This document shows, in pieces, positions 3,992 to 24,785 of a stretch of 64,000 nucleotides of DNA. Made by a program: the position numbers and the translations under genes. Source of the DNA: Escherichia phage vB_EcoM-pEB20; sequence record OP114733; one strand, written 5' to 3'. The notes under the pieces were generated by a model. It was not told the DNA's origin and made no database searches. It saw only the letters and a program-made list of their open reading frames with translations. Each line of letters starts with the position of its first letter. The stretch's first letter is position 1.

Positions 3992-4065
3992 GGCCCTGTA
4001 GCTCAACGGTTAGCAGCAGTCCCCTCATAAGGGAAAGGTTACCAGTTCGAATCTGGTCTGGGTCA
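3992..4065 (+). tRNA. tRNA with CAU anticodon (Met or Ile2/lysidine type)
   Basis: Acceptor stem GGCCCTG/CTGGGTC, T-arm ACCAG-TTCGAAT-CTGGT, anticodon loop CTCATAA; no encoded CCA; D and anticodon stems each have one mismatch. Confidence 0.7.
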
Positions 4066-4071
4066 TATATT

Positions 4072-4148
<77 letters not shown>

Positions 4149-9437: not shown

Positions 9438-10394
9438 ATGATGTTGGTTATTGGTTCTCGTGCACTTCACTATCACGGTCTTATTGATTCTAGCGCTATT
9501 AAAAATAGTGATTGGGACTTTATTGCGGACCAATGTTCTTGGAATGCATTCAAAAATCAAATGATGGGTGTATATGTTCACCAAGATAACCCTGATGTCC
9601 AAGTTTTCAAATGCTTCCATAATGGACGCGAAACTCATTTTGAAGCATATATTGTTCCGGCAATCACTAATGTCCGTGAATTAGTCGGTGAACTCACTCC
9701 TGAAGATTTCACGTCTTCTTATGACCTTTTAAAATACGCCAAGAAAAATTTGACTAAAGACCGTTTGAACGGGTTTTACTGGGCAACTCCTGAGATATGT
9801 CTTGCAATTAAGATGTCTCATCGTTTCAAGAAAAATAATCCATTCTTTTTAAAGACTATGAACCATATTCAGTATCTTCGTGGTAAAGGTGTTACACTGG
9901 ACGATGAACTTACTGAAATTATGCTGAAACGCCAGAAAGAAACCTTGAATTATGCTCACCCAGTTCTTGACACTTCTAAAAGTGCGTTCTTTAAAGATGA
10001 CATCTATACATATGACCATGATACTATTCATGAAGCCATTGCACTAACAGACCGTCCAGCGTATACATTTTACATGAAAGATGGTTCTGAAGTCATGACC
10101 TCACGCGAGAAGTTCGAATCATTACCAGAAATGGTCAAATTGGCTGGTGTATACGAAGAATCATGTGTACTAGCGTTAGAACGTTCTCAGATTCCTAATA
10201 ACTTTGAAATCCATCCACGTGATAGTTTTATGATGGCTCTTGAAAAGGTCTGTACTTCAATCACATCAGGTTGGTTCCGTGAATACGCCTGGGAAAACCA
10301 CAGCAAAGTAGTAAGTATGTACCAAAGCTTAGGACATGACGATTACGTCAAACGTTTCAAACAAAATTTCCATATGGTAAAACCTTTCAAATAA
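9438..10394 (+). CDS. hypothetical protein with weak nucleotidyltransferase-like N-terminal motif
   Basis: 318 aa; VIGSRALHYHG...SDWDF resembles the G[SG]...D-x-D NTase signature; unverified. Confidence 0.55.
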   Translation: MMLVIGSRALHYHGLIDSSAIKNSDWDFIADQCSWNAFKNQMMGVYVHQDNPDVQVFKCFHNGRETHFEAYIVPAITNVRELVGELTPEDFTSSYDLLKYAKKNLTKDRLNGFYWATPEICLAIKMSHRFKKNNPFFLKTMNHIQYLRGKGVTLDDELTEIMLKRQKETLNYAHPVLDTSKSAFFKDDIYTYDHDTIHEAIALTDRPAYTFYMKDGSEVMTSREKFESLPEMVKLAGVYEESCVLALERSQIPNNFEIHPRDSFMMALEKVCTSITSGWFREYAWENHSKVVSMYQSLGHDDYVKRFKQNFHMVKPFK

Positions 10395-21261: not shown

Positions 21262-21373
21262 CCCGTGAACAAGCTAATAAATTGATGGACCTTATTTAAT
21301 TTTTATAGAAATCAGGTTGATGCTCGTCAGAATGATTTGGTGAATTTTGTTGAAACTTTAATTGGTGAATAAT

Positions 21374-21904
21374 ATGAAAACTGTAATTGAAACGACTGAG
21401 TTGTTTGGTGATTTATGTATCGAAAAACGTGGTTATGCGTACGTTCTGACGCAAGAAGATGATGTTGTTACTATTCTTCCTATGGAACTAGACAAGATTT
21501 TGAAACTCAATCCACCCGGCCATGCATCTGTAATTAACATTGATGAAGACCTTCAAGTTCGTTTTTATCACAGTCTTTATAGTGGGGTTAATATCGAAAC
21601 AGAAGATGAATGCCTTTCTATCAATAATTGGAAAACATTCGTCACTAAGGTGAAAGAATTCATAGAATCTGAAACAGCCAAAAAGGCCAAACTTCAATGG
21701 GCTAAATGCCGTAATGCTTTTATTACAAATCAGGACCGCCCTGACTATACAACAGTCCTAGGCGTTAATCCTTCTTATGAAGACGGTGATGTCGTAGTTA
21801 TTCGCCAAATTGATGACCTTCGTCAGCATATCATTACATTAGACAAAGATGAAGCAGTTGCTCTTAAAGCTTATCTCGATTCTATTATCCCGACTTTGAA
21901 ATAA
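21374..21904 (+). CDS. hypothetical protein
   Basis: 176 aa from ATG 21374. Confidence 0.55.
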   Translation: MKTVIETTELFGDLCIEKRGYAYVLTQEDDVVTILPMELDKILKLNPPGHASVINIDEDLQVRFYHSLYSGVNIETEDECLSINNWKTFVTKVKEFIESETAKKAKLQWAKCRNAFITNQDRPDYTTVLGVNPSYEDGDVVVIRQIDDLRQHIITLDKDEAVALKAYLDSIIPTLK

Positions 21905-21913
21905 GGAATTATT

Positions 21914-22387
21914 ATGATTATCAATGAAAACTCTTGGCATTTTAAAATTTATGCCGCGTTCAATAGTACATGGAATCGCCCGAAAACGTTGTGTGCTTAT
22001 TTTTGGAAAACGTTAATCCCAGTATTGGCTGTTTCAATTATTGGATTTGCGATTTTAGCAGCAGTCACAATCATTGGCCATGAAATTTTAACTAAATTCT
22101 TTGTTTTTAGCAGTCTATGGACATTAGTTCCAGCCTCAATTGGTGTAGGCATTTTATTGGTAGCAGTCATGGCTTTTATTTCTACCGGGTTGGTAATTGG
22201 TCCGTCTTGGTTGTTAGACAAATATAACGACAGAAAATATTATAAAGAAATTGAGCTCATTGCACAAAACCAAGAACGAATTAAAAATGGACTTGAGCCT
22301 ATTGAACGTAAGAAATCATTAATAGGCGAATACCTTAAAGCTCGTAAAGAAAAAGTCTGTCCTACTCTTGAATATAAGGCTAAATGA
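21914..22387 (+). CDS. membrane protein
   Basis: 157 aa with about 3 TM helices. Confidence 0.55.
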   Translation: MIINENSWHFKIYAAFNSTWNRPKTLCAYFWKTLIPVLAVSIIGFAILAAVTIIGHEILTKFFVFSSLWTLVPASIGVGILLVAVMAFISTGLVIGPSWLLDKYNDRKYYKEIELIAQNQERIKNGLEPIERKKSLIGEYLKARKEKVCPTLEYKAK

Positions 22388-23373
22388 TGAAAACAATTAT
22401 GAAAGGCTACTTTGGTAGCCACCTTTATGGAACGTCTACCCCAGAATCTGACGTTGATTTTAAAGAAATTTATGTCCCTCATGCTCGTGATATCTTGACC
22501 GGTAACGTTAAAGAACATATGAGCAAGAACACGAATAACACATCTTCTAAGAACACAAAAGACGACGTGGACCATGAGTTATATAGTCTCAAATATTTCT
22601 TTAAACTAGCTGCGGATGGTGAAACTGTCGCATTAGATATGCTTCACACTCCACCAAGTCTAGTAGTTAAATCTGATTTGCCTGATGTATGGAAGTATAT
22701 TCAAGATAACAGGTCTCGTTTCTATACCACTAACATGAAATCTTATTTAGGGTATGTCCGTAAGCAAGCTTCTAAATATGGTGTCAAGGGTTCTCGACTG
22801 GCTGTTCTTCGTCAAGCCCTTAAACGTTCTAATGAATGGGGACAATACTTTGATAACGGTGCAGTAATTCGTTTATCACATATGAAGAATGTTCTGCCTG
22901 TAGGTGAATTTGCTTCATGGGTTGAAATCGAAAACGAGAAAACAGGTAAGCAAACATTCTATAATCTGTTAGACCGTAAATTCCAAGACACGTTAACCAA
23001 TAAAGAGTTCAATGCCATCCTGGTTAAACTGGAAGAGAACTATGGTGAACGTGCTCGTAAGGCAGAAGCTAACGAAGGTATTGACTGGAAAGCATTGAGT
23101 CATGCATGTCGTGGTGGACTTCAATTATTGGAAATTTACAAAACCGGCGACCTGGTTTACCCACTTCAGGATGCTCCATTTATTCTCGATGTTAAGCTTG
23201 GTAAACATACGTTTAAAACTGTACAAGAATTCCTAGAAGATATCGTTGACCAAGTTGAACATGCGTCAGAACAAGCTGCCAAGAATGGTATGCAACAAAA
23301 AGTAGATATGAGTTTCTGGGATGATTTCCTTGAGCAGGTCTATCTCGAAAATCATAATTCTTACTATAAATAA
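22384..23373 (+). CDS. hypothetical protein with nucleotidyltransferase-like N-terminal motif
   Basis: 329 aa; GSHLYGTSTPESDVDF matches G-S...D-x-D NTase signature; unverified. Confidence 0.55.
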   Translation: MMKTIMKGYFGSHLYGTSTPESDVDFKEIYVPHARDILTGNVKEHMSKNTNNTSSKNTKDDVDHELYSLKYFFKLAADGETVALDMLHTPPSLVVKSDLPDVWKYIQDNRSRFYTTNMKSYLGYVRKQASKYGVKGSRLAVLRQALKRSNEWGQYFDNGAVIRLSHMKNVLPVGEFASWVEIENEKTGKQTFYNLLDRKFQDTLTNKEFNAILVKLEENYGERARKAEANEGIDWKALSHACRGGLQLLEIYKTGDLVYPLQDAPFILDVKLGKHTFKTVQEFLEDIVDQVEHASEQAAKNGMQQKVDMSFWDDFLEQVYLENHNSYYK

Positions 23374-23404: not shown

Positions 23405-23686
23405 ATGAAAAAATTAGTAATTGGTTTATTCGCAGTAATGATGGCATTCTCTGTTGGTGCTACCACGGGTTCAGCCAGCGGTAGTGCAGGAACTGGTGGT
23501 AACCAGTCTTCTGGGCCTTCCAACGGTTCGGTAAATGCATCACATTCTCAGGGTATTGAGAATATCAAATCAAGCTATATTAATAGCACGGCCGGACAAG
23601 CAACTGAAGCATGGTCAAAGGGTCGAGTAGTTACACGCTCCGTATTCTGTGATATGCCTAATTATGTTGCTAAGTGCGATAAGTAA
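23405..23686 (+). CDS. secreted Gly/Ser-rich small protein
   Basis: 93 aa with signal peptide MKKLVIGLFAVMMAFSVGA. Confidence 0.55.
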   Translation: MKKLVIGLFAVMMAFSVGATTGSASGSAGTGGNQSSGPSNGSVNASHSQGIENIKSSYINSTAGQATEAWSKGRVVTRSVFCDMPNYVAKCDK

Positions 23687-23691
23687 ATGTG

Positions 23692-23710
23692 GGGACCTTC
23701 GGGTCCCTTT
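23692..23710 (+). terminator. hairpin terminator with UUCG tetraloop
   Basis: GGGACC-TTCG-GGTCCC followed by TTT. Confidence 0.55.
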
Positions 23711-23804
23711 AGGGGGTTAAAATATTTTTAAAAAGTGGTGTACATGCTTTTAGGATATGTTATTATAGACCTATCGAAACGAAATGAGTAAATTGGAGAA
23801 TAAA

Positions 23805-24785
23805 ATGTTCAACGTTCAAATCAAAAAAGGTATCTATCGTAATAACGAAATCTCTGGTTCTTATGTTGCCACAAAGACCTGGTTCCCGGCAAAGCTTAAT
23901 CCTGAATGTTCCCACTTAGGTGATGGTAAAATTTTCGTTATGATTGATGGTTCTGAACGTGGAGTATGGGTCTTCAAATCAGACATCGTAATGGAAGGAG
24001 TTGAGACGTCACCGGTTGCAGTTGTTGAAAGCACTGAAGATATGAAAACTCGTATCAACAAACGCTTTAAAGTAATGAACATGATGACGAATGGTATTAT
24101 CGATGGCAAAATTCGTTCACTCATTATTTCAGGTGCAGCCGGTATCGGTAAGACGTATTCTCTGGATAAAGCACTTAATAGTGCTAATGATAACGGTTTC
24201 ATCAAATACAAAAGCATTAATGGTAAAATCTCTGGTATTGGCCTTTACGAACAACTTTGGCTCAACCGTGATGCAGACAGCGTTCTCTTAATCGACGACG
24301 TTGATGTATTCTCAGATATGGATATCTTGAACCTTCTTAAAGCAGCATTAGATACCGGTGATAAACGCAAAGTTTGTTGGAGCACTGCGTCATCTTATCT
24401 TGATGATAAGGGTATTGATAAAGAATTTGAGTTTGAAGGTACTATCGTTTTCATTACAAACGTTGATATTGATAAAGAGTTAGAACGCGGTTCGAAACTT
24501 GCTCCGCACCTTCAAGCTTTAGTATCTCGTTCAGTGTATCTCGACCTTGGAGTACACTCTAATGAAGAGATTATGGTTCGAGTTGAAGATGTAATATTAT
24601 CTACTGACATGATGCAGAAACGTGGCTTGACTGATGCTGAAACGTACAAAGCATTGTCCTGGATGAAGGCTAACGTATCTCGTCTTCGCAATGTATCATT
24701 ACGTACGGCTCTTTATGTAGCAGATTTTATTTCAACTGATAAAGATGGTTGGGAGGAAATCTCTGAAGTAACTTTACTGAAATAA
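23805..24785 (+). CDS. AAA+ family ATPase
   Basis: 326 aa from ATG 23805 (GGAGAA SD); Walker A GAAGIGKT, Walker B VLLIDDVD. Confidence 0.7.
   Translation: MFNVQIKKGIYRNNEISGSYVATKTWFPAKLNPECSHLGDGKIFVMIDGSERGVWVFKSDIVMEGVETSPVAVVESTEDMKTRINKRFKVMNMMTNGIIDGKIRSLIISGAAGIGKTYSLDKALNSANDNGFIKYKSINGKISGIGLYEQLWLNRDADSVLLIDDVDVFSDMDILNLLKAALDTGDKRKVCWSTASSYLDDKGIDKEFEFEGTIVFITNVDIDKELERGSKLAPHLQALVSRSVYLDLGVHSNEEIMVRVEDVILSTDMMQKRGLTDAETYKALSWMKANVSRLRNVSLRTALYVADFISTDKDGWEEISEVTLLK

Follow-up and report, generated by a model that had tools for sequence, protein, structure and literature searches.

The 329-aa protein encoded at positions 22384..23373 (+ strand) of the window, that is, the 64,000-nucleotide stretch of the genome of Escherichia phage vB_EcoM-pEB20 (OP114733) analysed here, is almost certainly a nucleotidyltransferase (NTase) of the RlaP family and an ortholog of T4 nrdC.11. 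On whether this enzyme may act in the phage through the RNA-repair mechanism proposed below, our opinion is evenly balanced; for the NTase identity and the RNA-repair explanation taken jointly, a judgement in which the two are blended, our confidence is somewhat better than even. The gene is already known, with a RefSeq annotation, an NTase domain described as early as 2006 (PMC1524935) and a family that was biochemically characterised in 2025. The present analysis makes modest additions, namely, the anatomy of core and insert, an ortholog that lacks the insert, the rapid divergence of this insert, and bacterial cassettes in which a long RlaP is combined with a second RlaP.

The open reading frame and its place in the T4-type genome

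The ORF at 22384..23373 (+) is the only long one at the locus, the opposite strand being packed with stop codons. Two in-frame ATGs, at 22384 and 22387, are candidate starts, the second of which yields a product of 328 aa; database copies of the protein are annotated with either length, many of them with 328 aa. A Shine-Dalgarno-like AAGG element, read directly from the sequence, is located at 22376..22379 (+), 4 or 7 nt ahead of the two ATGs. The upstream ORF, coding for a 157-aa membrane protein of PHROG 944 (21914..22387, +), ends with a TGA at 22385..22387 that overlaps the start of the nrdC.11 ortholog, which suggests translational coupling. In a scan for promoters and terminators, the counts were not above those in shuffled sequence.

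The signature YFGSHLYGTSTPESDVDF (residues 9-26; 22408..22461, +) includes G11-S12 and D23-x-D25. The G-S...D-x-D motif alone is weak evidence for a nucleotidyltransferase, and the loose pattern G[GS]-x9-13-D-x-[DE] occurs six times in the approximately 21,000 aa that make up the window's stop-free stretches of 100 aa or longer. The NTase inference therefore stands on conservation and on family-level evidence. The original prediction of a 329-aa ORF with such a motif at this position is confirmed, given that no other long ORF is present and the motif residues are invariant among the homologs (see below). Another protein of the window, the one at 9438..10394 (+) to which the original prediction had compared the motif, contains a G-S...D-W-D sequence with a spacing of 15 residues, which is beyond the usual NTase window, and matches DUF7277 and DUF7275 (E=1e-27 and 4e-78, respectively). 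This protein was considered as a possible second RlaP, mirroring the tandem pairs of bacteria, and was rejected in view of the DUF7277 and DUF7275 matches.

The 4 kb around the ORF are 97-98% identical at the DNA level to many Mosigvirus genomes (RB69-like, Straboviridae), for example, those of 348Ecol098PP and APCEc01. The gene order in the window, regB - vs - tk - rI - ... - nrdC.11 ortholog - ... - nrdC - pin - 49, is the same as that in the T4 region from tk to gene 49. The original prediction recognised no T4 counterpart of the protein, which proved wrong: T4 NrdC.11 (NP_049709.1, T4p095) is 78% identical to it over the full length (329/336 aa), shares all its motifs, and is encoded in the same genomic place, with the rI/mobD region on its upstream side and nrdC.10 as the next gene downstream. 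The next large ORF of the window (23784..24785, +) encodes a protein that is 78% identical to T4 NrdC.10. The two loci differ in that T4 carries the homing endonuclease gene mobD upstream of nrdC.11, where pEB20 encodes the 157-aa membrane protein, and in that pEB20 has, between nrdC.11 and nrdC.10, a 93-aa signal-peptide ORF (23405..23686, +; PHROG 2243) for which a counterpart was not seen annotated in T4.

Several other features of the locus are of note. The NrdC.10 ortholog contains a P-loop, GAAGIGKT, and belongs to PHROG 1250, with all its AAA-type Pfam matches below threshold; its true start may lie downstream of the first ATG, as Met8 (23805) is the residue aligned with the start of the T4 protein. 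The 93-aa ORF is followed by a stem-loop, GGGGACC-TTCG-GGTCCC (23690..23707), and then by an AT-rich stretch. Upstream of the membrane protein gene, a putative transcription factor of the T4_y05I type (PF24449/PF24448) is encoded at 21362..21904 (+). Only two tRNA genes, for tRNA-Met (CAT) and tRNA-Arg (TCT), were detected in the window by ARAGORN (3992..4148, +), at the site of the eight-tRNA cluster of T4.

Homologs of nrdC.11 are present in 1542 phage records, with at least 80% of the protein covered in 1448, and the hosts of these phages include Escherichia, Klebsiella, Aeromonas, Acinetobacter and Vibrio. The databases already contain proteins that are 100% identical to the 329-aa protein. 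Older phage records call the gene nrdC.11, and RefSeq annotates the T4 protein as a nucleotidyltransferase; many GenBank and UniRef entries name it 'thioredoxin', and some records list only a 'hypothetical protein'. The 'thioredoxin' label looks like an error that spread from the locus name nrdC.11.

Family membership, active site and predicted fold

In Pfam, the protein matches the RlaP family (PF10127, 'RNA repair pathway DNA polymerase beta family') with E=7.7e-13 and a score of 49.1 bits (cut-off, 23), over residues 7-136 only, which correspond to positions 23-143 of the 249 in the profile. PHROG 388, 'nucleotidyltransferase', is matched over the full length (E=3.8e-126). The founding paper of the RlaP family is that of Burroughs and Aravind (2016), as cited through PMC12776372 and PMC7824862. 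When the 1.84 billion representatives of clusters at 50% identity were searched exhaustively with HMMER, 3214 relatives passed E<1e-3 and 743 passed E<1e-30, most of them full-length. For the conservation analysis, the 329-aa protein was aligned with 88 relatives (34-52% identity), and RlaP was matched by 88 of the resulting 89 sequences. The Pfam match to NTP_transf_2 over the GS...DxD segment is sub-threshold (13.3 bits vs 21), and searches of the PDB with the protein, by sequence and by profile, returned nothing relevant.

Residues G11, S12, S22, D23, D25, Y132, K236, R243 and G273 are invariant in the 89 homologs, and D61, D63, D85, K131, D234, W235, H240 and K271 are conserved in at least 90% of them. 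D63 (codon 22570..22572, +), the probable third catalytic carboxylate, is an aspartate in 88 of the sequences and a glutamate in one, and was aligned by hhalign with the conserved D of the canonical RlaP motif 'lDinGWD'. From this pattern of conservation, the NTase active site, consisting of G11-S12, D23-x-D25 and D63, is predicted to be intact. A dead remnant of a gene, or an ORF called in error, has a negligible probability: catalytic residues are invariant or nearly so across divergent homologs, the 1542 phage records include 1448 with a near full-length protein, T4 and pEB20 share 90% identity in the core despite the overall divergence of the genomes, and the predicted structure is a confident one (pLDDT 93.9), even if T4 remains viable after deletion of nrdC.11 (PMC9825161) and the product is only a hypothetical protein or a 'thioredoxin' in some records.

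The AlphaFold2 model obtained from the 89-sequence alignment (pLDDT 93.9, pTM 0.84) begins with a strand (3-10), a GS turn and a helix (12-15), so that G11-S12 lies between strand and helix; D23-x-D25 opens the next strand (24-31), and D63 is located on strand 62-68. In the model, this is the canonical placement of the motifs in a Pol-beta NTase. Beyond the NTase core, the model is helical to about residue 155 and continues with a three-stranded sheet (177-201) and a helical bundle (206-328). The architecture, as modelled, is that of a Pol-beta-type NTase domain with a helical domain, broken by an insert of about 100 residues.

Comparison of the model with solved structures using Foldseek identified kanamycin NTase, Hailong HalB and 3c18 with probabilities of 0.98-0.99, none of them at E<1e-3. 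The likeness is at the fold level only, with 8-16% sequence identity, a TM score of about 0.3 and no sequence-family match, and the substrates differ, being aminoglycosides for kanamycin NTase and protein-primed oligo-dA for HalB. Among predicted viral structures, many NTases of phages, giant viruses and baculoviruses (HE65) match the model. Profile and fold comparisons therefore bear out the NTase assignment, with RlaP above the Pfam threshold and NTases as the Foldseek matches.

Such fold-level similarity brings up the unlikely alternative that the acceptor is not RNA but a small molecule or a protein, as it is for the kanamycin and lincosamide nucleotidyltransferases and the MntA antitoxins. 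The low identity and TM values, and the lack of any Foldseek match at E<1e-3, argue against this reading, as does the score of 12.9 bits for the MntA (MNT-HEPN) antitoxin family NF047752, far under its cut-off of 60. The sequence family is RlaP, the characterised members of which left E. coli proteins and DNA unlabelled (PMC12776372), and the gene context in bacteria is RNA repair.

A further reading is counter-defence by mimicry, in which the enzyme would synthesise a nucleotide or an oligonucleotide that serves as a signal or a decoy. Hailong-type channels might, for instance, be held shut by an oligodeoxyadenylate like that of HalB, or the product might be a messenger resembling those of CD-NTases. 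We consider this highly improbable. The similarity is generic to the NTase clade; the PADLOC defence models gave zero matches for the protein, and no CD-NTase or SMODS family was found among the Pfam matches, in PADLOC or among the top PDB fold matches. Moreover, RlaPs add only 1-2 nucleotides onto an RNA primer (PMC12776372), and the neighbours of the bacterial genes are RNA ligases, not effectors. The original prediction had offered a nucleotide-signalling or a nucleic-acid-modifying enzyme; modification, specifically of RNA, agrees with membership in the RlaP family, and signalling is to be discounted in the absence of PADLOC and CD-NTase matches.

Core, insert and C-terminal domain

The protein can be divided into three parts. 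Residues 1-131 (22384..22776, +) comprise the N-terminal NTase domain with the first helices and are the part that matches Pfam RlaP; residues 132-233 (22777..23082, +) form an inserted subdomain; and residues 234-329 (23083..23370, +) form the C-terminal helical domain, which includes the invariant or nearly invariant D234, W235, K236, H240, R243, K271 and G273. In the model, the insert contains a helix (136-155), the three strands at 177-201 and the first part of a helix (206-228), and the C-terminal four-helix bundle resembles HEPN and KNTase C-terminal domains.

The boundaries of the insert are given by an ortholog from the Krischvirus (RB49-like) phage KFS-EC (YP_010097384.1; L090:2504-3202). 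This protein, of 232 aa, lacks the whole of 132-233, has the same catalytic motifs, and is collinear with the rest of the pEB20 protein, at 43% identity over residues 1-131 and 52% over 234-321. Because the KFS-EC ortholog skips 132-233, the 329-aa protein can be described as an RlaP-sized core plus an inserted subdomain of about 100 residues. The Krischvirus orthologs are natural 'core-only' forms, about as long as canonical RlaP.

Within the insert, divergence is rapid. Identity between the pEB20 and T4 proteins is 43% over residues 146-215 (22819..23028) and 90% over 1-145 and 216-329. The Mosigvirus type of this block (94-99% identity) occurs in only 146 records, and 980 of the 983 remaining records are below 60%. 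We considered that the block might be a cassette exchanged between phage genera and rejected this possibility because the Mosigvirus type is confined to the 146 records, which therefore indicates lineage-specific divergence. As a speculation, the fast-evolving insert 132-233 may select the substrate.

For the comparison with canonical RlaPs, 14 sequences were taken from the bacterial loci described below. The hhalign alignment with this set (probability 94%, E=1.1e-7) is significant over the N-terminal half. Removal of the insert improves the E-value of the full alignment from 1.1e-7 to 6.1e-9 only, and the C-terminal part alone lands at the collinear position with E=0.11, which is not significant.

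Bacterial neighbourhoods and a putative role in tRNA repair

The long form was sought in one genome for each prokaryotic species, which yielded 80 bacterial or archaeal loci at 33-52% identity, in 70 of which the gene was recovered by ORF calling and BLAST clustering; neighbours within about 8 kb were compared, with representatives identified using Pfam. A second RlaP-family ORF, of the canonical type, is present in 16 of the 70 loci (the representative matches PF10127 over the full length, E=4e-75), RtcB in seven, a Pnkp ligase domain also in seven, Ro60/TROVE in four and Hen1 in three. At least one of these neighbours was found in 24 of the 70 loci, and an RNA-repair neighbour was absent from the other 46; RtcA is encoded in two loci. 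The enrichment of RNA-repair neighbours is strong as judged from the rarity of these genes, rather than from a formal background figure.

The arrangement of the two RlaP genes is regular. In 15 of the 16 loci, the canonical RlaP gene directly follows that of the long RlaP on the same strand; the two are separated by -68 to +249 nt, and in 11 of the 15 cases by -20 to +44 nt. Such tandems of a long and a canonical RlaP (approximately 255-290 aa) include loci L010, L014, L017, L024, L030, L039, L053, L054, L060, L068, L073 and L078, among others, and the stop and start codons often overlap. The locus from Nitrosospira (L030) contains a full operon, in the order Ro60 - x - RtcB - RtcA - long RlaP - RlaP - Hen1 - x - Pnkp.

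Two RlaPs, from Pseudomonas fluorescens and P. aeruginosa, were characterised in a 2025 preprint (PMC12776372). These enzymes add 1-2 NMPs or dNMPs to an RNA 3'-OH, are inactive on 3'-phosphate ends, DNA and protein, prefer Mn2+ as the divalent metal and, as the acceptor, the anticodon-side end exposed by the nick in a tRNA mimic, and partly rescue the aminoacylation of a tRNA that lacks one anticodon-loop nucleotide; their 3'-OH product is chemically compatible with ligases that require a 5'-phosphate (PMC12776372). The same study placed T4 NrdC.11 in the RlaP family, in cluster 5 of a sequence similarity network (SSN), the assayed Pseudomonas enzymes being in cluster 1a (PMC12776372). According to an earlier prediction, RlaP acts ahead of ligation and replaces the nucleotides that RloC-type nucleases have removed, and in jumbo phages, the distribution of RlaP mirrors that of RNA ligases (PMC7824862).

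Together, the biochemistry of the family, the predicted repair of RloC damage and the bacterial gene context make the succession Pnkp, NrdC.11 and Rnl1 the most likely mechanism. A nucleotide-excising anticodon nuclease of the host, such as RloC, would cut a tRNA and remove a nucleotide, and the phage polynucleotide kinase-phosphatase (Pnkp) would turn the damaged end into a 3'-OH. NrdC.11, with NTP and a divalent metal, would then add one or two untemplated nucleotides to this 3'-OH, and RNA ligase 1 would join it to the 5'-phosphate, so that part of the tRNA becomes functional again. Only a minority of the tRNAs would be rescued by an untemplated addition that has little NTP specificity. The more specific proposal, that NrdC.11 is an unrecognised third enzyme of the classical tRNA repair by T4 Pnkp and Rnl1, refilling the wobble nucleotide excised by RloC, with the insert picking the tRNA or the nucleotide, is put forward tentatively, as a possibility that we would not yet favour.

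The close relative APCEc01 encodes both Rnl1 and Pnkp, elsewhere in the genome; in T4-type phages, nrdC.11 does not adjoin rnlA or pseT, and the neighbourhoods of the homologs in the distant Vibrio phage D490 and Tunturiibacter phage Tunturi_5 are devoid of RNA-repair genes. Under laboratory conditions, T4 can do without nrdC.11 (PMC9825161), and the phenotype therefore gives no support to the repair reading; dispensability fits a conditional role in counter-defence and proves nothing.

This lack of linkage to ligase and kinase genes in the phage is compatible with another reading, to which we assign a rather low probability, namely that the enzyme is an RNA 3'-end nucleotidyltransferase that serves other ends, such as a trimmed tRNA 3'-CCA or phage or host transcripts, instead of anticodon-loop repair. 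In favour of such an activity, the phage has its own genes for tRNA-Met and tRNA-Arg; Pfam, however, yielded no match to the PolyA_pol or CCA-adding families even at E<=1. Some T4 tRNAs depend on the CCA enzyme of the host, which argues against a CCA activity of the phage. The assays of the Pseudomonas enzymes bear on both sides of the question: PfRlaP and PaRlaP label rRNA-sized RNA, full-length tRNA and fragments, with little NTP specificity, but add only 1-2 nucleotides and favour the broken anticodon-side end of nicked tRNA (PMC12776372). In bacteria, the context consists of ligases and healing enzymes, which speaks against this reading.

The textbook example of tRNA repair in the service of counter-defence comes from T4-type phages, and it has been proposed that anticodon nucleases which excise a nucleotide overcome repair by healing and sealing alone. 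The question raised here is whether NrdC.11 helps T4-type phages to survive these nucleases. The anatomy of the protein offers experimental handles in D23, D25 and D63, in the removable insert 132-233, which a naturally occurring ortholog lacks, and in the bacterial tandem cassettes.

Compared with the canonical RlaP of Pseudomonas, NrdC.11 has in common the GS, DxD and third-Asp motifs and an NTase domain with a helical domain, predicted in NrdC.11, after it, and differs in the insert of about 100 residues (132-233) and in a C-terminal domain that has diverged beyond detection by profiles. In bacteria, genes for RtcB, RtcA and Pnkp are associated with the long form as they are with canonical RlaP, and the long form accompanies canonical RlaP rather than replacing it. 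If NrdC.11 is indeed the third enzyme of phage tRNA repair, the long and canonical paralogs of bacteria would either have separate functions or act jointly.
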